This document shows positions 32,508 to 52,648 of a DNA stretch of 64,000 nucleotides, piece after piece; the stretch's first letter is position 1, and each line of letters starts with the position of its first letter. Position numbers and translations under genes: made by a program. The notes beneath the pieces are model-generated. The model was not told the origin of the DNA and ran no database searches. It saw only the letters and a list, made by a program, of their open reading frames with translations. This stretch comes from Alphaproteobacteria bacterium (GTDB lineage: Bacteria > Pseudomonadota > Alphaproteobacteria > Bin95). The stretch spans positions 768,001 through 832,000 of the forward strand of contig CAXXWS020000002.1 of the NCBI GenBank assembly GCA_963665325.3. Reading direction: 5' to 3'.

Positions 32508-33389
32508 TTACGGCATGACCTTTACATCCGCGTTGCGCTCGACGGTGCGCAGCAGCTCGGTCACATCAGCCTCGCGGCCCAGATGGGCGAGCGAGGCCTG
32601 GTGCAGCTCGCGCACGACATTGGCGACGAACATGGGCGCGGCGCTGTCGGAGCCGAGCTGGGTCGCCAGGCGTACATCCTTGTGCATCAGCGCCAATGCG
32701 AAATCGAAGGGCTGCGGGCCCTCTGTCTGCGCGGCCAGCATGGCCTCCGACATGAAGCTTCGGCCCGAGCTCTTGTTCAGCACCTCGACGGCCCTGGCGA
32801 AGTCGAGCCCGTTCTTGACCCCCATCGCGACCGCTTCGCAGGCAGCCGCATATGCGGAAGCGGCGGTCACATTGTTCACCAGCTTCATCACATGGCCCGT
32901 CCCGACGCCGCCGCAATGGAAGACGTTGGGGCTGATGGCATGCAGCATCGGCAGCACCTCGGCGTAATCGGCATCCTCCGCGCCGACCATGATCGCGATG
33001 GTGCCGGCGTCCGCCCCCTTCTTGCCGCCCGAGACCGGCGCGTCGATCAGCCGGATGCCGCGCTCCGCGAGTTCCGCCGCCATGGCGCGCGTCGCATTCG
33101 GGTCGCCGGTCGTCTGGTCGAGGATGATGTTGCCCGGAGCCATACCCTCGGCAAGCCCGCCCGGCCCGAACACCGCCTGACGCACATTATCCGAGGTCGG
33201 CAGGCAGGTCAGCACGGTTCCGCACTCCGCGCCGAGTGCTGCGGCAGACTGGACCGGCGTGCAATTGTTGTCTGCCAGCGCCTGCATCGCCTCGGGGCGC
33301 AGGTCGAAGACGCGCAGCGGATGGGTGAGGGCGAGGCGGCGGGCCAGCGCGCCTCCCATGTTGCCGAGGCCGACATAGCCGATGCTCAT
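32508..33389 (-). CDS. Beta-hydroxyacid dehydrogenase (3-hydroxyisobutyrate dehydrogenase family)
   Basis: GYVGLGNMG, DAPVSGG, GHVMKLVNN catalytic Lys, MHKDVRLA. Confidence 0.9.
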   Translation of the reverse strand: MSIGYVGLGNMGGALARRLALTHPLRVFDLRPEAMQALADNNCTPVQSAAALGAECGTVLTCLPTSDNVRQAVFGPGGLAEGMAPGNIILDQTTGDPNATRAMAAELAERGIRLIDAPVSGGKKGADAGTIAIMVGAEDADYAEVLPMLHAISPNVFHCGGVGTGHVMKLVNNVTAASAYAAACEAVAMGVKNGLDFARAVEVLNKSSGRSFMSEAMLAAQTEGPQPFDFALALMHKDVRLATQLGSDSAAPMFVANVVRELHQASLAHLGREADVTELLRTVERNADVKVMP

Positions 33390-33488: not shown

Positions 33489-34259
33489 ATGCCCGATTCC
33501 CATGCTGCCGACTATTCGATGCAGGACCGCGTAAGCCCCGAGGAATGGGCCATTCGCGTCGATCTCGCCGCGCTCTACCGCCTCTGCGCCCGGCACGGCA
33601 TGACCGACCTCACCTACACGCACCTCTCCGCGCGGGTGCCGGGCGACGAGGATGCGTTCCTCCTCAACCCCTGGGGCCTGCTGTTTGAGCAGGTGACAGC
33701 CTCGAACCTGGTCAAGGTCGACACGGAAGGCAATCTGCTGGGCGAGAACCGCTACGGGGTCAATGCCGCCGGTTTCACCATCCACTCTGCGGTCCACATG
33801 GCGCGGCACGATCTGATTTGCGTCGCGCATACCCACACCCGCACGGGCATTGCGATCTCGGCGCTGCCGCAGGGCCTCCGGCCGGTGAACCAGAAGGCGA
33901 TGCAGTTCCACGGGCGCCTCGCCTACCACGACTATGAGGGCATCGCCTTCGACCTCGGAGAGCGCGAGCGGCTGATCGCGGATCTGGGCGACGCGGATGC
34001 GATGGTGCTGAGGAACCATGGGTTTCTTGTCGGCGGACGCAGCATTCGCGAAGCCTGGGCGCGGCTCTACGACCTCGAAAAGGCTGCAAAGACGCAGATG
34101 CTCGCCGAGGCCTCCGGCGCGCCGCTCGCCACGCTCTCGGATGCATTCCTCGACGAGCAGAAGAACCGGCCGCGGCTGAACCGCAGCTACAATCCCTATG
34201 ACGGTTGGGAATCGCAGCTTCGCCTGCTGGACCGGGCCGACACCTCCTACCGGCACTGA
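33489..34259 (+). CDS. Class II aldolase/adducin family protein
   Basis: RVDLAALYR, THLSAR, FLLNP, IHSAVH, HTHT, LRNHG, DYEGIA; SD GAGGAG. Confidence 0.9.
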   Translation: MPDSHAADYSMQDRVSPEEWAIRVDLAALYRLCARHGMTDLTYTHLSARVPGDEDAFLLNPWGLLFEQVTASNLVKVDTEGNLLGENRYGVNAAGFTIHSAVHMARHDLICVAHTHTRTGIAISALPQGLRPVNQKAMQFHGRLAYHDYEGIAFDLGERERLIADLGDADAMVLRNHGFLVGGRSIREAWARLYDLEKAAKTQMLAEASGAPLATLSDAFLDEQKNRPRLNRSYNPYDGWESQLRLLDRADTSYRH

Positions 34260-34278: not shown

Positions 34279-35046
34279 ATGCCCGACATCCGTTCCCGCG
34301 TCTCCGAGGCCGAATGGCAGGCGCGCACCGACCTGGCGGCCGTCTTCCGGCTGGCGGCGAAGCACGACCTTTCCGACTTGGCACTCACCCATTTCGCGGC
34401 GCGGGTGCCGGACGAACCCGACAGCTTCCTCCTCAACCCCTACGGGCTGATGTTCGAGGAGATGACCGCCTCCTCGCTGGTCAAGACAGACCGCGACGGC
34501 GGCGATCCGCTGGACACGGGCAGTCCGCTGAACGCGGTCGGGATCATGCTGCATTCCGCCGTGCTCGATGCTCGGTCGGACGTGGCCTGCACCGTGCATA
34601 CGCACACCGTGCCCGGCATGGCGATTTCTTCCCTGGACACCGAACTGCTGCCGGCTTCGCAGACCGCGCTGATCTTCCACGGGCGCGTCGGCTACCACGA
34701 CTGGGAGACCGACGAGACGGAGCTGGACGAGCGCGAGCGGCTCGCGCGCGATATCGGCTCCAACGGGCGGGCATTGATCCTGAAGAATCACGGCCTGTTG
34801 GCCGCCGGCCCCTCGATCCCGACAACCTGGATGCTGCTCCACGCTCTGGAACGGGCCTGCGCCTCGCAGCTGGACGCGATGGCGGCGACCCGCGCCGCCG
34901 GCGCCGGGCTCGAAATGCCGCGGGCGGAGGTTTGCGAGAGCACCGCCAGGCAGTTCGACGAGTTCCTGGCCCGGCCCAGCCGGGACGACGACTGGCCGGC
35001 CTATCTGGAACTGCTCGACCGGGAAGACCCGAGCTACAGGGAATAA
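34279..35046 (+). CDS. Class II aldolase/adducin family protein (tandem paralog)
   Basis: RTDLAAVFR, FLLNPYG, LHSAV, HTHT, LKNHG; ATG 34279. Confidence 0.9.
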   Translation: MPDIRSRVSEAEWQARTDLAAVFRLAAKHDLSDLALTHFAARVPDEPDSFLLNPYGLMFEEMTASSLVKTDRDGGDPLDTGSPLNAVGIMLHSAVLDARSDVACTVHTHTVPGMAISSLDTELLPASQTALIFHGRVGYHDWETDETELDERERLARDIGSNGRALILKNHGLLAAGPSIPTTWMLLHALERACASQLDAMAATRAAGAGLEMPRAEVCESTARQFDEFLARPSRDDDWPAYLELLDREDPSYRE

Positions 35047-35101: not shown

Positions 35102-35944
35102 ATGAACATGACCGAATCGAAAGTCGCGATGGACTATGCCCGCGACGGTTTCGTCTTTCCGCTCGATATCGTGACGCAGGCGGAAGCCGCGGAACTGCGC
35201 GCCGACCTGGAGAAGGGTGAGGCCGAGCTGGCCGATGACCGCAAGCGCCTCGGCCTGCTGCGCGGGTTCCCGGCGCGGTTCCTGCCGTCCTTCGACCGCC
35301 TCGTGCGCCATCCGAAGATGGTGGAAGCGGCTAAGGCGGTGCTCGGGCCGGATGTCATGGTCTGGGGCTCCGGGCTGTTCATCAAGGAGGCGAACACGCC
35401 GAGCTTCGTTTCCTGGCACCAGGACCTGACCTATTGGGGCCTCGACAAGGCCGAGGAGACGACCCTCTGGGTCGCGCTCTCGCCGACGACGCAGGAGAGC
35501 GGCTGCATGCGCTTCATCCCCGGCAGCCACCGGGAGCGCATCGTGCCGCATGCCGACAGCTTCGCCGCCGACAACCTGCTGACGCGCGGCCAGGAAATTC
35601 AGGTCGAGGTGGACGAAGAGGCCGCCGTCGATGTGGTGTTGAAGCCGGGCCAGGCCTCGCTGCACCATGGCCACCTGTTCCACGCCTCTGGCCCCAACCG
35701 CACGGGCGACCGGCGCATCGGGGCCGCCATCCGCTACATCGCGCCCTCCATGAGTGCGCGCTCCGGTCCGGAAACCGAGGTCGCGCTGGTGGCGGGCGAG
35801 GATCGCTTCGGGCACTTCGCCATCGTGCCCCCGCCGGCCCGTCGGATGGACGAAGCGGACTTCGAGACGGTCGCGGCCGATGCCGAACGGCGCGAGCAGA
35901 TCCTGTTCGACGGCACGGGCGGCCGCCGGCGCAAGCCGCGATAG
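35102..35944 (+). CDS. Phytanoyl-CoA dioxygenase (PhyH) family Fe(II)/2OG dioxygenase
   Basis: FIKE, WHQD (HxD), WVAL, GCMRFIPGSH, distal His HASGPN, RRIG. Confidence 0.9.
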   Translation: MNMTESKVAMDYARDGFVFPLDIVTQAEAAELRADLEKGEAELADDRKRLGLLRGFPARFLPSFDRLVRHPKMVEAAKAVLGPDVMVWGSGLFIKEANTPSFVSWHQDLTYWGLDKAEETTLWVALSPTTQESGCMRFIPGSHRERIVPHADSFAADNLLTRGQEIQVEVDEEAAVDVVLKPGQASLHHGHLFHASGPNRTGDRRIGAAIRYIAPSMSARSGPETEVALVAGEDRFGHFAIVPPPARRMDEADFETVAADAERREQILFDGTGGRRRKPR

Positions 35945-36000: not shown

Positions 36001-36912
36001 GTGACGGGCGCCGACTTGCCGAAGGCGCAGCCCGCGTTGACCTTCGCCGGATGCCGGTCTGCAACCCTTGAGGATATTCGCGCCGGTCTCGTGGTCTTCA
36101 GCGGGGTCGGCGGGGAACAGGCAAGCGCCAGCGGCGTCGCCGCGCGCCCATACGGATCGGCGGCATCGTCGGTGCGCGCGGCATCGAACGGCCTGCTGCG
36201 CCCCTATCGGGAGTCGCCCTCCGGCGTTGCGGTCGATCTCGACACGGGCCGGCGTTCAAGGTTGCGCGCCCCCGGTTCCTGCATCGATCTCGGCGATCTC
36301 GTGTCGTCCGGGGACCGGAACGACGCCTGCGCAACCCTCAGCGGCCGAATTGCCGAGGCGGGAGCGCGGCCTCTGTTCGTCGGCGGAGGCGATGAAGCAG
36401 CCCGAGGGTTGGCCGCCGGCATTTGCGGCGCACATTCGATGGTCGGTGCAATCGAAATCGGCGACCGCTGCCTCGCCGGACGCCTGGGCATTGCCGGACC
36501 GGTTCTTTCCCTCGGCGTCAGCGGGTTTCAGGACGTCGGGGTCTGGCGCCGGCAAATCGCGAACGGCGGCAGGATCGTGACGGCCGAACAGCTGCACGAC
36601 AACGGCCTCAATGCAGCGCGGGAGGGTTTGTCGGACTATGGCGGCGGCGATGCCGGACCTGTTTGCATCCTCGACTGCCGGGCGGTCGATATCGGCTACG
36701 CTGCCGGATGCGACAGCTTCACGGTCGGCGGCCTGACCCCGGAGCAGTTCGTTTCCCTGGCCGAACTGGCGGGCGCCTCGTCGCCACCCTCCGCAGCAGC
36801 GGTCATCCACCTCGATCCGGCCCGGGACCCGCGCGGCCACATGGAAAGCCTGGTCGCGGAGGCACTCCTTGCCCTCTTCCGGGATGCGCTCTTCCAGGAA
36901 ATCGAACCGTGA
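36001..36912 (+). CDS. Ureohydrolase (arginase/agmatinase)-fold protein A, metal ligands lost
   Basis: LTFAG, VRAAS, IDLGD, PLFVGGGD (for GGDH), ILDCRAVD (for SxDxD), GGLTP, LDPARD; GTG after GGAGGGGAG; 303 aa. Confidence 0.7.
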   Translation: MTGADLPKAQPALTFAGCRSATLEDIRAGLVVFSGVGGEQASASGVAARPYGSAASSVRAASNGLLRPYRESPSGVAVDLDTGRRSRLRAPGSCIDLGDLVSSGDRNDACATLSGRIAEAGARPLFVGGGDEAARGLAAGICGAHSMVGAIEIGDRCLAGRLGIAGPVLSLGVSGFQDVGVWRRQIANGGRIVTAEQLHDNGLNAAREGLSDYGGGDAGPVCILDCRAVDIGYAAGCDSFTVGGLTPEQFVSLAELAGASSPPSAAAVIHLDPARDPRGHMESLVAEALLALFRDALFQEIEP

Positions 36913-37826
36913 CGGTTGAAGCAGGGCGCGCGCCGGTCCCGGAGTCACTCTCCGGGGTGCCGACATTCTTCAATGCGCCGGTCGCCGATCTCGAAGATGT
37001 CGGACCCGGAGACGTGGCGGTCGTCGGCATCTACTGCGACCACTATGCCGAAGGCGAACCGGGCGCCCGTTTCCTTCCGCGGCAATTCCGCTATGCCTGC
37101 GCCCTCGACGGACGCGAGCCGCCGTCGGGCGTCTTCGATCTGGGCGATTTGAGCGTCTTTCCCCTCGAACCGGAGCGGTGCATGGAGGTCCTCTCGGATC
37201 AGGCCCTGCGGCTGACCGGAACGGGCGCGCACATGCTCGCAATCGGCGGGGATTACGGGCTGACGCCGGCGCTGCTGGCCGGTCTGCGTGCGGCGCGGCC
37301 TTCCGGGACGCTGGGCGTATTGCGCATCTCCGGTTCGGCCGACTTGGCCCCGAGCGGCACATCGGTTCTCGCGCGCACCGCCGCCAGCACCCGGATCCGG
37401 GCGATGGGAGGGGGCTTAGACGTTGCATTCGCCTGGCTGTCCGGCCCGGTGCCCGAGGCCGAAGCGGGCGCGCTCGCGGAAACGATATTCATCCCCGCGC
37501 GCGGCTGCCTCGGCGAAACGCCCGCCGGGATCGCGCCGCTTCGCGCCTGGGCCGAGAGCCAAGACCGCATCTATCTCAGTGTGGACGCCGATGTCCTGTC
37601 GCCCGCCTGCGCACGGACGGCGAGGGCCCGGCGACAAGGAGGCCTGTCTCATGGAGACGTGCTGAGGCTTCTCGATGCGCTCGGCCCACTGCATCCGGTC
37701 GGTGCTGAGTTCACCGGCCTTGTGCCGGACCTGGATGTTGCGGGACGCGGGCGCAGGACCATGTGCCTGGATTTGGTCGAGGCGCTGCTTTCCGGGGTGA
37801 TTGCGGGGCGCGACTCATGCCGCTGA
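36909..37826 (+). CDS. Ureohydrolase-fold protein B, partially degenerate
   Basis: GVPTFFNAP, VAVVGI, PGARFLP, FDLGD, GGDY, ISGSAD (for DAHxD), YLSVDADVLSP, GGLS; GTGA overlap; 305 aa. Confidence 0.78.
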   Translation: MTVEAGRAPVPESLSGVPTFFNAPVADLEDVGPGDVAVVGIYCDHYAEGEPGARFLPRQFRYACALDGREPPSGVFDLGDLSVFPLEPERCMEVLSDQALRLTGTGAHMLAIGGDYGLTPALLAGLRAARPSGTLGVLRISGSADLAPSGTSVLARTAASTRIRAMGGGLDVAFAWLSGPVPEAEAGALAETIFIPARGCLGETPAGIAPLRAWAESQDRIYLSVDADVLSPACARTARARRQGGLSHGDVLRLLDALGPLHPVGAEFTGLVPDLDVAGRGRRTMCLDLVEALLSGVIAGRDSCR

Positions 37827-38752
37827 GGACGGCACCCCTGCCGCGCATGGCCGGACACCTCACCTTCATGCGTGTCGAGCATGCGGCGGCCGATGCGCTG
37901 GCGACCGGCAGTATCGGCCTCGTCGGCATTCCGCGCGAAGACACCGATACGCGCACAACCGGCGCCCGGTTCGGCCCGAATGCGATTCGCGAGACCTCCG
38001 TCTATTTCGGCTGGCATGCCAACCCGCAGTTCAGCCGTCCGATCGCTATCGGTGACCGCATGGCGATTGACACATCGTCGATACAGGCATGCCTCTTCGA
38101 TCTCGGGGACATCCCCGTAGGCGGGCTGACCGCGGAAGCCGGCGACGACCTCATCCGCGCAACGCTCGGACAAATTGCCCGTTCCGGAGCGTCCGCACTC
38201 GTTCTCGGCGGGGACAGCGGCATCGTGGTGCCGGCGCTGGAGGGCGTTGCCATGGAAACGCCGGCTGCCCGGGTCCAGATCGGAGGGTTCGCAAGCATGG
38301 CGGGGAGTGGCGGCCCTGCGCTCCATTTCGCTCCGCGCAGGATTGCTCCCGCCAAGGTAGCGCCGGATCGCGGCGCATCCCGCCCGACGATCGTGAGCGC
38401 CCGGCAACTGGCCGGCCTCGACGACGGCGCGATAAGCCGAATGGCGGAGCGCGCCGCCGGCGGACGTCCCCTGGCGGTGCATCTCGATCTCTCGGCGCTC
38501 AATTCCTGCTGGCACGGAGCCTCCGACATGCCGCGCTTCGACGGTCTGGCCCTGTCCAGGCTCAGGCGGGTGCTGACCGGGCTGGGCCGCCTTCCCGTTG
38601 CGATGCTCGTCGTGACGGGCCTGAACCCGACGCTCAGCGGCCTCGCAACGGTCAAGACCGGTCAGCGCCTGCTGGTGACCGCGCTGCTCGATTACATCTG
38701 CGCACGTCTGGGCGCGCCGGAGGACCGCAACCGCGAAGGGCGGACGGCATGA
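37817..38752 (+). CDS. Ureohydrolase-fold protein C, metal ligands lost
   Basis: PRMAGHLTFMR, LVGIP, GARFGPNAIRETS, FDLGD, LGGDS, QIGGFAS, HLDLSALN, GLNP; 311 aa. Confidence 0.78.
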   Translation: MPLRTAPLPRMAGHLTFMRVEHAAADALATGSIGLVGIPREDTDTRTTGARFGPNAIRETSVYFGWHANPQFSRPIAIGDRMAIDTSSIQACLFDLGDIPVGGLTAEAGDDLIRATLGQIARSGASALVLGGDSGIVVPALEGVAMETPAARVQIGGFASMAGSGGPALHFAPRRIAPAKVAPDRGASRPTIVSARQLAGLDDGAISRMAERAAGGRPLAVHLDLSALNSCWHGASDMPRFDGLALSRLRRVLTGLGRLPVAMLVVTGLNPTLSGLATVKTGQRLLVTALLDYICARLGAPEDRNREGRTA

Positions 38753-39750
38753 CGGTCCTGTCGTTCCAGCTGGCGGAACCGACGCTCTTCGATGTCGGGC
38801 GCTGCGATGCCGACCGGATCGAACCGGGGGAGGTCGGCGTCGTCGGCATGCCGTCGGACTGGACGCACGGGAGTCGAATCGGCACGCGCTTCGGGCCTTA
38901 TGCCGCACGCCGGGCCACAACCGGGCTCATGCGCTGGAGAGCGGCTAAATGCGCGGGCGGCGATCTGGTGGATCCCGTCGCTGGAACCCTTTGGCGGGGT
39001 CGGGACCGTCCTGCGATCCGGGATCTCGGAGACGCTCCCATCGATGCTCAGTCGGTGCAGGCCACGACCGCTTCGATTGCCGCGCTCACCCGGGCCGTTC
39101 GCGCCCGCGGCGGCGTCCCCCTTGCGGTCGGGGGCGACCACTACAACAGTTTCCCCGCCTGCCTCGGCTATGCGCGCGGCCTTGCCGAGCGCCATCCCTC
39201 CCGCCGCTTCGGGTATGTCCAGATCGACGGCCATCTGGACTTTTCCGACCGGCTCGGGGCCTGGGGCACGCACAATCATGCGACCAACGCCCGGCGCATA
39301 TCCGAGATCGGGAACATCGTGCCGCAGAACATGGTGTGGATCGGTATCGAGGGTTGGGTCGATGGTGGCGACCTCGCGCTGATCGACGAGATGGGCGGCC
39401 TGGTGCTCTCCGCCGCGGATGTCCACCGCCTCGGACCCGACGAAACCGTGGCGCGCGCTCTGGCCCATGCAACCCGCGGGTGCGAGAGCCTCTATCTGTC
39501 CATAGATATCGACGCGATGGACGCGGGCTTCCTTCCCGGAACCGGATCGATCGTCCATAGCGGCATTACGCCGAGGCAATATTGCCGCATGTTGGCCGCA
39601 CTCGCCTTCGCTCCGGTCGACGGGCTGGATATCGTTGAGCTCTCTCCGCCGCTCGACCCGTCCGGCCGCAGCGAGCGCATCGTGGCGCAGATGCTGGAGC
39701 ATGTGCTCCGTCCCTATCTCTACGAACGAGTCGAGGGGCGTCTTGCATGA
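38749..39750 (+). CDS. Agmatinase/guanidino-hydrolase family ureohydrolase D, catalytic motifs intact
   Basis: GTRFGP, DLGD, GGDH, DGHLD, NHAT, SIDIDAMD, PGTG, DIVELSPPLD; ATGA overlap; 333 aa. Confidence 0.9.
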   Translation: MTVLSFQLAEPTLFDVGRCDADRIEPGEVGVVGMPSDWTHGSRIGTRFGPYAARRATTGLMRWRAAKCAGGDLVDPVAGTLWRGRDRPAIRDLGDAPIDAQSVQATTASIAALTRAVRARGGVPLAVGGDHYNSFPACLGYARGLAERHPSRRFGYVQIDGHLDFSDRLGAWGTHNHATNARRISEIGNIVPQNMVWIGIEGWVDGGDLALIDEMGGLVLSAADVHRLGPDETVARALAHATRGCESLYLSIDIDAMDAGFLPGTGSIVHSGITPRQYCRMLAALAFAPVDGLDIVELSPPLDPSGRSERIVAQMLEHVLRPYLYERVEGRLA

Positions 39751-39814: not shown

Positions 39815-40798
39815 ATGCGTATCGCCATCGAAGACGCCCACGTCCTGCTGACCGGCGTGATGGCGAAGCTCGGCTACGAGGCGGGCGACATCCCCGCCAT
39901 CGTGGACCATCTGATCGACAGCGAGCTTCGCGGGCTCTCATATGGCGGCCTGGCGCGGGCGGTGTCGATTACCGAGCGCATCGGGCGCACCGGGATGCCC
40001 TCCCGGCCCATGACGGTCACGCACGAGACGCCGGTTTCGGCCCGGATCGACGGCTCGGACCATCTCGGCTACCTCGTCGGCCAGCGCGCGACCGACATGG
40101 CCATCGGGAAGGCCAGTGCGATGGGCCTCTCGGCCGTCGGCGCGATCGATACCTGGTACACGGGCATGCTCAGCTACTTCGCCGAGCAGGCGGCGGCCCG
40201 CGACCTCGTGACGATGATCGCTTCCAACGCTTCGCCCTGGGTGGCGCCACACGGGGCTGTAGAGGGTCGATTCGGCACCAACCCGATGTGTTTCGGCTTT
40301 CCTTCGACTGGCCACCCCATCGTCTGGGATATAGGCACCAGCAACATCATGCATGCCGAGGTGCTGCTCGCCCGCCGTCAGGGCGTTCGGTTGCCGGAAG
40401 GCCGCGCCTTCGGTCCCGACGGCCGGCCGACCACCGATCCCGACGCGGCGCTGGCAGGCGCGTTCACGAGCTGGGGCGGGCACAAGGGCTCCGGCCTCGG
40501 CCTGGTCGTGCAGATGCTGGGGGTGCTGGCCGGCTCCGATGGCATGACTCCCGACCTTGCCGGGTTCGGCATGGTCATCGTCGCCATCCGCCCCGATATT
40601 TTCGGCGACACGGACGGATTCAAGCAGCGCATCGCTGACTATGCGGAGGCGGTGCGGACGGCGAAGCCCGCCGATCCGGCAAAGCCCGTCCGAATGCCCT
40701 TCGACCGCTCATGGGCCGTGCGCGAGGCCGCGAGGGCCTCGGGCGCCTTCGAGGCGGACGAAGCCATCGTCGAGCAGCTGCGGGCGTTCGTCGGCTAG
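39815..40798 (+). CDS. Ldh_2 family oxidoreductase (ComC/AllD/DpkA superfamily)
   Basis: SELRG, VAPHG, FGTNP, WDIGTS, GRPTTDP, GGHKGSGL; SD GAGGAG. Confidence 0.88.
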   Translation: MRIAIEDAHVLLTGVMAKLGYEAGDIPAIVDHLIDSELRGLSYGGLARAVSITERIGRTGMPSRPMTVTHETPVSARIDGSDHLGYLVGQRATDMAIGKASAMGLSAVGAIDTWYTGMLSYFAEQAAARDLVTMIASNASPWVAPHGAVEGRFGTNPMCFGFPSTGHPIVWDIGTSNIMHAEVLLARRQGVRLPEGRAFGPDGRPTTDPDAALAGAFTSWGGHKGSGLGLVVQMLGVLAGSDGMTPDLAGFGMVIVAIRPDIFGDTDGFKQRIADYAEAVRTAKPADPAKPVRMPFDRSWAVREAARASGAFEADEAIVEQLRAFVG

Positions 40799-40810: not shown

Positions 40811-41299
40811 GTGGGCGGGGAACCGATAGCAATTGTCGAGGCCTCGCGGGCCGATGAAATCGCCGAAATTCGGGCGCTCTTCGCGGAATACCAGCAATGG
40901 CTGGGCGAAGACCTCTCCTTCCAGGACTTCCCGGCGGAACTGGACTCGCTGGCGGAGTTGTATGCGCCGCCGGAAGGGCTGCTGTTGCTCGCCCGCGCCC
41001 CTGACGGAGCGGTGGCCGGCGGCGTCGGCATGAAGGGGCTGGAACCCGGCATCTGCGAAATGAAACGCCTCTTTGTCCGCCCGTCCTGGCGCGGCCACGG
41101 CTTGGGACGCTCGCTGGCCGAGGCGGTCGTGCAGGCAGGACGGGATGCGGGCTACGCGTTCATGCGCCTCGACACGCTGGCCCGCCTGGAAGAGGCGGTC
41201 GCGCTCTACCGGTCGATCGGCTTCTACGAGATCGCGCCCTATTACGAGAACCCGATGGACGGCGTGTTCTATCTGGAAAAGGCGCTGGGCCGAGGGTGA
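40811..41299 (+). CDS. GNAT family N-acetyltransferase
   Basis: LSFQDF..EL..L...YAPPEG, CEMKRLFVRPSWRGHGLG, MRLDTL, LYRSIGF. Confidence 0.9.
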   Translation: MGGEPIAIVEASRADEIAEIRALFAEYQQWLGEDLSFQDFPAELDSLAELYAPPEGLLLLARAPDGAVAGGVGMKGLEPGICEMKRLFVRPSWRGHGLGRSLAEAVVQAGRDAGYAFMRLDTLARLEEAVALYRSIGFYEIAPYYENPMDGVFYLEKALGRG

Positions 41300-41377
41300 C
41301 GACGGCGGGCGAAACGATGCAGAATGGCCGCAATCGAACGGGATGGCGGCAGAATTGCCGCGAACTGGGGGAAGCGC

Positions 41378-42160
41378 ATGGAATTCGAGGGCCGGACCGT
41401 CATCGTGACGGGAGCGGGCACCGGTGTGGGAGCAGCTGCCGCGCAACGTCTCGCCGGGGGCGGCGCGAAGGTGATCGTCAACTACTCCCGCAGCCGGGAC
41501 GAGGCGGAGGCCGTGGCGGCCGCTTGCCGGGAGGCGGGCGGCGAGGCCGCGGCGGTGCAGGGCGATGTGGCGGACGAGGACGATTGCAAGCGCCTGGCCG
41601 GGGAAGCCGTGTCGCGCTGGGGCCGGATCGACGGCCTCATCAACAGCGCGGGCACCACGGTGTTCCGGCCCGGCAACGACTTCGACACACTCTCCCAGGA
41701 GGACTTCCAGCGCATCTACAGCGTGAATGTGGTCGGGGCCTTCCTGATGACGCGGGCGGTGTCGGCGCAGATGAAATCCCAGGGCCGGGGCAGCGTCGTC
41801 AATATCTCGTCGATTGCCGGCGTGATGGGCGTGGGCAGCTCCATCGCCTATGCCGCATCGAAAGGCGCGCTCAACACCCTGACCCTGTCGCTCGCGCGTG
41901 CGCTTGCGCCTGAAATTCGCGTCAACACGGTGGCGCCCGGTTTCATAACCGGCCGCTGGTGGCGGGAGAAGATGGGCGAGGGTTACGACAAGATGGTCGC
42001 TAACACCGAGGCGGCGACGCCGCTCAAGCGAGCCGGGACTCCCGAGGACATGGCGGCAGCGGCGGTCTGGCTGCTCTGCGGCGATGTCAACATTACCGGC
42101 GAAATCCTGATCTCGGACGCCGGGATGCACTTGGGCGCGGCGCCGTTGAAGGCGCGGTAG
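41378..42160 (+). CDS. Short-chain dehydrogenase/reductase
   Basis: TGAGTGVG, NSAG, YAASK, RVNTVAPG; ATG 41378. Confidence 0.9.
   Translation: MEFEGRTVIVTGAGTGVGAAAAQRLAGGGAKVIVNYSRSRDEAEAVAAACREAGGEAAAVQGDVADEDDCKRLAGEAVSRWGRIDGLINSAGTTVFRPGNDFDTLSQEDFQRIYSVNVVGAFLMTRAVSAQMKSQGRGSVVNISSIAGVMGVGSSIAYAASKGALNTLTLSLARALAPEIRVNTVAPGFITGRWWREKMGEGYDKMVANTEAATPLKRAGTPEDMAAAAVWLLCGDVNITGEILISDAGMHLGAAPLKAR

Positions 42161-52572: not shown

Positions 52573-52648
<76 letters not shown>

Follow-up and report, generated by a model that had tools for sequence, protein, structure and literature searches.

A conserved four-gene ureohydrolase cassette with one ligand-complete and three ligand-degenerate paralogs: a candidate hetero-oligomeric enzyme

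We describe a cassette of four adjacent genes, here called A, B, C and D, in a stretch of 64,000 nucleotides (nt) from an alphaproteobacterial genome (assembly GCA_963665325.3, contig CAXXWS020000002.1, positions 768,001 to 832,000 of the forward strand), referred to below as the window. All four products belong to the ureohydrolase fold and only D retains the ligands of a metal site. The order and the open frames of the four genes are deeply conserved, A, B and C are under purifying selection, and the four genes have co-diverged and move between operons as a block. We propose that A–D probably form one hetero-oligomeric ureohydrolase, in which D would be the catalytic subunit with a binuclear metal centre and A–C would be non-catalytic structural and specificity partners, acting in the hydrolysis of a guanidino or amidino compound. 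A fixed order, overlapping junctions, co-divergence, block mobility and selection on ligand-less paralogs are together what is expected of the subunits of one enzyme. An earlier sequence-only reading of the window had put forward such an arrangement of one active and three inactive subunits. Fold, conservation and selection support it, the physical hetero-oligomer receives weak support from structure prediction, and the guanidino substrate is putative. As the same four genes occur in the same order in dozens of genomes, the arrangement is not a matter of chance, and because the cassette is a widespread conserved module and no local oddity, the case made by the earlier reading is strengthened.

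Four paralogs and one complete metal site

The sequence-only reading had reported four coupled open reading frames (ORFs) of 303, 305, 311 and 333 residues on the plus strand without frameshifts, and both the coordinates and all of the junctions were reproduced (Table 1); none of the four contains an internal stop. It had also assigned the ureohydrolase fold to all of them, which held for A–C. The Pfam model PF00491, with a gathering score of 22 bits, matched every product above threshold (A 32.4, B 78.0, C 58.4 and D 178.9 bits). Family profiles matched solved ureohydrolases, with A finding 3m1r (4.5e-30, positions 29-292 of 299), and B and C finding 1wog (4.7e-19) and 7esr (8.1e-17), respectively, each over nearly the full length. 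An AlphaFold2 (AF2) model of C, with a predicted local distance difference test (pLDDT) score of 73.8 and a predicted template modelling (pTM) score of 0.80, was matched by Foldseek to Escherichia coli agmatinase 7lol (E 2.8e-16, template modelling scores 0.69/0.72), with 202 Protein Data Bank (PDB) chains at E <= 0.001. The three-layer alpha/beta/alpha arginase fold is thus assigned from a structure model for C and from sequence evidence for A, B and D. The best solved relatives of D were guanidinopropionase 3nip (1.4e-28) and guanidinium hydrolase 7esr (4.6e-26), with further matches to 9fek (1.2e-25) and 3nio (4.8e-18). D is 55–64% identical among cassettes outside its own lineage and forms a subfamily of its own. 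Pairwise identity to A is 25% for B, 24% for C and 27% for D, and each paralog is an old clade (see below), in line with the earlier view that this is no recent duplication. One further, canonical member of the ureohydrolase family is encoded elsewhere in the window's genome, which is 100% complete.

The motifs on which the sequence-only reading had relied were all found in the translations (GGGD and LDCR in A; GGDY, SGSAD and SVDAD in B; GGDS, GGFAS, LDLS and YFGWHANPQF in C; GGDH, DGHLD, NHAT, SIDID and DIVE in D), and its statement that D alone carries the full metal and catalytic set was borne out in the window and family-wide. When D is aligned with solved enzymes, their ligands and catalytic residues are matched by GGDH, DGHLD, DIDAMD, the His of NHAT and the Glu of DIVE. 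The eight positions concerned (H/D/H/D/H/D/D/E) are kept in 41–43 of 41–43 aligned D sequences with one exception: Cys replaces the first Asp of DxD in 5/41, all five from gammaproteobacterial loci. This Thioglobus/Njordibacter clade (L013-L016, L054) reads SLCIDAMD at that site and keeps every other ligand; the substitution may point to a change of metal or of the affinity for it.

In A–C the canonical residue is absent or in the minority at seven of the eight positions, family-wide. The remaining position, the Asp equivalent to arginase D232, is universal in the aligned sequences of all three (A 44/44, B 45/45, C 46/46). A has otherwise lost its ligands throughout the family, with an Asp at the D128 equivalent in a minority of 6/44. 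B has lost the His ligands and the Glu, and has Asp at the D128 equivalent in 24/46 sequences and at the D234 equivalent in 25/46. Each of the three has a set of invariant polar residues of its own, made up of D225, D230 and R278 in A, of C43, D44, R54, R58, Q59, R61 and Y62 in B, and of R58-S61, W66, N69 and Q71 in C, with K280-R284 nearly invariant. C is the most distinctive in this respect. Its specific invariant segments are an N-terminal PLPRMAG, RETSVYFGWHANPQF and VKTGQRL, and across 44 C sequences R4, P7, P9-G13, R58-Q71 (RETSVYFGWHANPQ) and K280-R284 are invariant or nearly so. The low-confidence segments of the C monomer model (1-12, 65-74 and 272-278) coincide with these motifs, as is expected of loops that become ordered only in a complex.

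Conservation, selection and co-divergence

A search with two C-specific peptide motifs, restricted to one genome per species, returned 44 loci, whose ORFs were assigned with hidden Markov models (HMMs) built for the four paralogs. The earlier reading had asked for homologues in a conserved four-gene order; intact A-B-C-D on one strand was found in 37 of the 44, and no locus had another order. Six loci are cut by contig ends (L017, L023, L025, L033, L052 and L053) and hold the two or three genes expected. The one broken locus, L047, has C, D and only the last ~75 residues of B, and is a second copy in a metagenome-assembled genome (MAG) that also holds a complete cassette. In another MAG locus, L032, B is short and D is divided between two ORFs. 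The damage in L032 and L047 may reflect assembly errors or real decay. Measured from the start codon nearest the upstream stop, a choice that favours overlaps, the A/B junction is -8 to -1 nt in 40/41 cases, the B/C junction -10 to -1 nt in 41/43, and the C/D junction -4 nt in 22/40 and at most 33 nt in 39/40.

The hosts are spread widely. Within the Alphaproteobacteria they include the Roseobacter group (Ruegeria, Shimia, Sulfitobacter, Pelagimonas and HTCC2083) and other lineages, and within the Gammaproteobacteria Thioglobus/Pseudothioglobus, Njordibacter and Halioglobus; a Comamonadaceae MAG (Betaproteobacteria), Desulfuromonadales MAGs and an Acidimicrobiales MAG complete the range. The cassette is nevertheless rare: among 400 other genomes drawn from across the class, two had a D ortholog (E <= 1e-60). 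In the window's own genus A was found in three of 16 other genomes. In two of these (G011 and G016) the whole block is 82–93% identical to the window; in the third (G014) identity falls to 24% for A, 32% for B, 43% for C and 63% for D, with the same order and overlapping junctions. Among 1.84 billion cluster representatives the C profile found 36 at E <= 1e-30. Of the 8000 candidates scored in another search, 245 clusters (90% identity) lay at E <= 1e-10; where database names are given they are 'agmatinase' or 'arginase family protein'. One predicted protein, P0037 (440 residues, from a 4616-nt contig), comprises a full C (1-328, 421 bits) followed by an N-terminal part of D (346-427), which may represent a C-D fusion, a read-through or an error in sequencing.

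Relationships among the paralogs were examined with FastTree on 81 rows, made up of 20 loci and the genome's fifth arginase, the other loci being omitted to remove near-duplicates. Each paralog formed a single clade, with Shimodaira–Hasegawa-like support of 98, 99, 100 and 100, and the four subtrees were congruent, with the same internal groupings, subject to the caution due to FastTree on long branches. Over 39 loci, pairwise distances between loci correlated between paralogs with r of 0.97–0.99, and mean p-distances were 0.59 for A, 0.57 for B, 0.49 for C and 0.32 for D; A is only 23–36% identical across lineages. From the monophyly of the paralogs and the congruence of their trees it follows that four distinct genes, with A–C already devoid of the metal site, were present in the common ancestor of the cassettes and have co-diverged since. 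The ratio of nonsynonymous to synonymous substitution rates (dN/dS), estimated by the Nei-Gojobori method among the window, G011 and G016, was 0.29–0.37 for A, 0.28–0.35 for B, 0.34–0.48 for C and 0.12–0.15 for D, with 0.06–0.11 for the neighbouring dioxygenase gene. A–C are under purifying selection that is relaxed relative to D, and their values of 0.28–0.48 are not near 1, the sign of decay that the earlier reading had named.

In five loci the block stands alone among unrelated neighbours (L011 of G014, L019, L021, L026 and L028), and the four genes are therefore a constant and mobile unit. Transposase or integrase genes were seen to adjoin cassettes at L011:5850-6635 (a transposase fragment, in G014) and L020:12222-14439. 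G014 belongs to the same genus as the window, but its cassette clusters with the one from a Rhodospirillales MAG (L027) rather than with the cassette of the window, which points to horizontal transfer of the block.

A proposed enzyme and its alternatives

From these observations we infer a physical assembly, with a stoichiometry, metal, reaction and substrate, along the following lines. D would hold the binuclear metal centre and do the chemistry, in which, most probably, a guanidino or amidino group is hydrolysed and urea set free. HypA (PF01155) had no match in the genome, the eight matches to the cobW/HypB family (PF02492) all lie outside the window, and no HypA/HypB-type gene was found among the window neighbours or in the marine operons scanned, in agreement with the earlier remark that nickel chaperones are not adjacent. 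Mn2+ would be our guess for the metal because no nickel-chaperone genes accompany the cassette. A–C would be ancient paralogs that lost their metal site before the examined lineages diverged and were retained as obligatory structural and specificity partners, by analogy with what MetCb (MefH-beta) does for MetCa (MefH-alpha) in metformin hydrolase. They may stabilize D and wall in its pocket with their family-specific conserved loops, the N-terminus and the WHANPQF loop of C being the prime candidates. The importer and catabolic genes that flank the block suggest that the cassette would serve the catabolism of an imported nitrogenous compound.

Complex prediction gives weak support to this proposal. 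With B, C and D modelled together and D as the scored partner, the interaction prediction score from aligned errors (ipSAE) was 0.56 (runs 0.59, 0.55 and 0.56) versus 0.01 for the best of three controls. The runs agreed in at least 78% of contacts, and the pLDDT of the partner was at least 87. Of 80 solved complexes 58 attain the mark for ipSAE, as do 2 of 110 mismatched pairs; those that attain it at 0.60 or below are only seven of the 80, together with both mismatches. Since structures of homomeric ureohydrolase oligomers and of MefH have been solved, the score may owe its height to resemblance to these.

Several points weigh against a four-subunit enzyme acting on guanidino or amidino compounds. 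The prediction just described covers B, C and D, and its score lies in the band of weak support. Ureohydrolases assemble as trimers or hexamers, and four unlike subunits at 1:1:1:1 fit neither simply. A–C change at two to three times the rate of D, a pattern also compatible with roles outside a tight complex, and the invariant polar residues that each of them has made its own could signify an activity of their own. The substrate class of D is drawn solely from its family membership. D reached none of the NCBIfam equivalog cut-offs, and A–C scored far lower still on the agmatinase models; the best-scoring curated families for D, SpeB (TIGR01230, 99.7 bits with a cut-off of 174.3; NF002564, 113.2 with 302) and HutG (TIGR01227, 96.8 with 229.15), all leave it far below, and the database name 'agmatinase' is therefore a label for the fold and not for a function. 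By the curated cut-offs the cassette is likewise no formimidoylglutamase or arginase. Neither urease nor any other gene for the handling of urea was seen next to the cassette. Finally, no guanidine riboswitch was detected in the window and five further loci, where tRNA was the only Rfam family found; the sole match in the window is a tRNA gene at 52576-52648 on the minus strand (RF00005, 67.3 bits).

One alternative explanation for the data makes A, B and C independent enzymes or binding proteins, in which the arginase fold has been re-used without a binuclear metal site and which would carry out successive steps of a pathway or sense a ligand beside D, whether or not in a stable complex. The separate sets of invariant polar residues, the Asp equivalent to D232 kept in all three and dN/dS values clearly below 1 would each fit such independent functions. 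However, the literature searched yielded no precedent for metal-free catalysis in the arginase fold, and genes that always occur together in one order and overlap at their junctions, as A–D do, typically encode subunits synthesized at a set ratio. The segments conserved in C alone come out as disordered in the prediction of the monomer, and in metformin hydrolase, the known precedent, the role is that of a scaffold. We consider independent functions unlikely.

Another possibility is that A–C are maturation or stabilization factors, needed for the folding or metal-loading of D, that bind it briefly and form no part of the active enzyme. MetCa needs MetCb to be soluble, the cassette is accompanied by no genes for nickel or other metallochaperones, and the faster evolution of A–C would suit helpers. 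Three different helpers sharing the fold of their client would be unprecedented, however, and the overlapping junctions suggest equimolar synthesis; the prediction moreover sets D against B and C with at least 78% agreement in contacts, although its support is weak. This explanation appears improbable to us. That A–C are decaying pseudogenes from a tandem duplication of D, as the missing catalytic residues and the two damaged MAG loci might suggest, is refuted by the conservation data and has next to no probability, as frames are open in 37/44 loci in spite of the low identity of A across lineages, dN/dS is well below 1, A, B and C are each an old monophyletic family and stretches of C are invariant in 44 sequences.

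Genomic setting, related cassettes and known systems

In the window the cassette lies in an operon that runs from two genes of the class II aldolase/adducin family to a short-chain dehydrogenase gene (Table 1), and G011 and G016 are alike up to the Ldh_2-family gene. The two aldolase-family products scored 332 and 261 bits with NF005451. The PhyH-family dioxygenase is 94–95% identical in G011 and G016, and in the other lineages it does not belong to the cassette. The G016 locus (L010:10799-13809, minus strand) differs in an insertion between the PhyH gene and A of the three genes of a tripartite ATP-independent periplasmic (TRAP) transporter, DctP, DctQ and DctM, which hints at an organic acid as substrate in that genome.

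Table 1. Features of the cassette and its neighbours in the window.
Feature	Position	Strand	Remarks
3-hydroxyisobutyrate-dehydrogenase-like	32508-33389	-	divergent; PF03446 + PF14833; kept in G011, G016
Two class II aldolase/adducin-family genes	33489-34259, 34279-35046	+	PF00596; kept in G011, G016
PhyH-family Fe(II)/2-oxoglutarate dioxygenase	35102-35944	+	PF05721, 119.5 bits; 56 nt upstream of A
A	36001-36912	+	non-catalytic ureohydrolase paralog, 303 residues; GTG start, GGAGG-like site upstream
B	36909-37826	+	non-catalytic ureohydrolase paralog, 305 residues; GTG start, 4-nt overlap with A (GTGA)
C	37817-38752	+	non-catalytic ureohydrolase paralog, 311 residues; ATG start, 10-nt overlap with B
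D	38749-39750	+	sole ligand-complete, presumably catalytic ureohydrolase subunit, 333 residues; ATG start, 4-nt overlap with C (ATGA)
Ldh_2-family oxidoreductase	39815-40798	+	PF02615, 263.7 bits; 64 nt downstream of D; kept in G011, G016
GNAT (GCN5-related N-acetyltransferase) acetyltransferase	40811-41299	+	variable operon tail; found only in G011
Short-chain dehydrogenase (SDR)	41324-42160	+	variable operon tail; found only in G016

Most marine loci have a different and very regular operon around A-B-C-D. Import is represented by a PotD-type binding protein, an ATP-binding cassette (ABC) ATPase and two permeases, an importer type that suggests a polyamine-like or cationic compound, and regulation by an IclR gene, often on the opposite strand. 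D is followed by a gene for a protein that we call Y, and then by genes for an aldehyde dehydrogenase, a family-III coenzyme A (CoA)-transferase and a member of the hydroxymethylglutaryl (HMG)-CoA-lyase subfamily or a short citrate-synthase-like protein. The aldehyde dehydrogenase is nearest to 2,5-dioxovalerate dehydrogenases, below their cut-offs, and the CoA-transferase nearest to succinate-glutarate CoA-transferase. Protein Y (230–240 residues) follows D in 33/45 loci (e.g. L041:9850-10560, plus strand) and has the invariant motifs NEWD, HNxxWNW, CRG and HRHEDIGWRP. It had no match in Pfam at E <= 1e-5 or in NCBIfam at E <= 0.01, its AF2 model (pLDDT 67) had no Foldseek match in the PDB at E <= 0.001, with a best VIA-align Z of 3.0, and the query used for Y found no counterpart in the window's genome. 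The marine pathway may include protein Y as an additional component. A 270-residue ORF upstream of A in roseobacter loci (L041:5759-6568, plus strand) was considered as a fifth conserved gene and rejected, as it is the antisense shadow of the IclR gene (L041:5774-6544, minus strand; HTH_IclR and IclR_C). In GC-rich genomes, ORF callers are easily misled by such shadows.

Mixed cassettes of active and degenerate ureohydrolases seem to be a broader, undescribed theme. Three relatives of C (P0142, P0145 and P0147) have C-like N- and C-termini and retain GGDH. In a metagenome scan, an alignment used as query found relatives where P0142 alone found none, and these lay on soil-type contigs with other tandem sets. 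The 5545-nt contig L057 (with overlapping pieces L060, L061 and L066) carries five consecutive ureohydrolase paralogs on one strand, whose eight key positions read HSQDHDDE, QSQDRDDG, HDHDNDDE, HSRDRDDG and HDHDHDD-, the last truncated where the contig stops. L063:5040-8045 carries three tandem same-strand paralogs, with RSDDSDGG, HSKDRDDG and HDHDHDDE. One member of this related L057/L063 group has a C-like N-terminus.

It is conceivable, at somewhat less than even chances, that the cassette is the first ureohydrolase holoenzyme built from four gene products, that L063 and L057 belong with it to a wider, undescribed group of cassettes with three, four or five paralogs, and that it opens up the catabolism of a nitrogen-rich metabolite that abundant marine heterotrophs import. 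If so, its carriers would include roseobacters, Pseudothioglobus and Njordibacter, and the three pseudoenzyme subunits would each occupy a distinct position. Partnerships of enzyme and pseudoenzyme within the arginase fold were reportedly first shown in 2024, for one recently evolved two-gene enzyme that degrades a drug. The cassette suggests that the principle is old and natural and has been taken further, to three dead paralogs for one live one. The carriers are ecologically important marine bacteria in which the cassette sits in a complete uptake-and-catabolism operon; it thus offers a way into two questions: how, and for what reason, the pseudoenzyme subunits of a single complex become diverse, and which compound with a guanidino or amidino group supplies these bacteria with nitrogen and carbon. 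On the several hundred genes of this kind, the labels 'agmatinase' and 'arginase family protein' are uninformative.

No description of an operon of three or more ureohydrolase paralogs was found in the full-text literature, where the matches were confined to work on metformin hydrolase and guanidine hydrolases, supplements being outside the scope of that search; the supplementary sequence-similarity networks of one report (PMC11271267) might include such clusters. The ligand set of D, with its conserved His and Glu, is shared by GpuA and GbuA of Pseudomonas aeruginosa (3nip and 3nio) and by the guanidine hydrolases of Synechocystis (7esr) and Nitrospira inopinata (9fek). These are homo-oligomers encoded by single genes. 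They match D only distantly, and D constitutes a separate subfamily. Guanidinium hydrolase depends on Ni2+. Guanidine riboswitches have been linked to guanidine hydrolase genes (PMC12508155). The cassette departs from this enzyme, GdmH, in that 7esr matches D at only 4.6e-26, and in having neither HypA in the genome nor a guanidine riboswitch in the window and the five loci.

The closest parallel, and the only characterized one together with its relative dimethylguanidine hydrolase (DmgH), is metformin hydrolase (MefH, MfmAB or MetCaCb), to which the sequence-only reading had aptly likened the four genes, as it too pairs one ligand-bearing with one ligand-less adjacent paralog. According to two reports (PMC11399263, PMC11271267), it is an alpha2beta4 assembly, a dimer of alpha-beta2 trimers, in which nickel is bound by alpha alone, alpha is insoluble and inactive without beta, and the pocket of alpha is capped by 23 residues at the N-terminus of beta; it is Ni-dependent, has hypA and hypB in its operon and is described as recently evolved. 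Adjacent ligand-complete and ligand-degenerate paralogs are common to MefH, together with DmgH, and to the cassette, where the proportion is one to three. Only the heteromer of MefH is active, and its pseudo-subunit solubilizes the partner, according to the same reports; we propose that the cassette would work in the same manner. The two systems differ in the number of gene products (two in MefH, four in the cassette), in the hypA and hypB genes that accompany the former and were not found with the latter, and in age, MefH being recent whereas the cassette predates the divergence of the examined carriers. MefH chains matched A–D at 1e-5 to 1e-14 versus down to 1e-30 for other ureohydrolases, and since they rank well below the latter, the cassette is not orthologous to MefH and the loss of ligands in the two systems is convergent.

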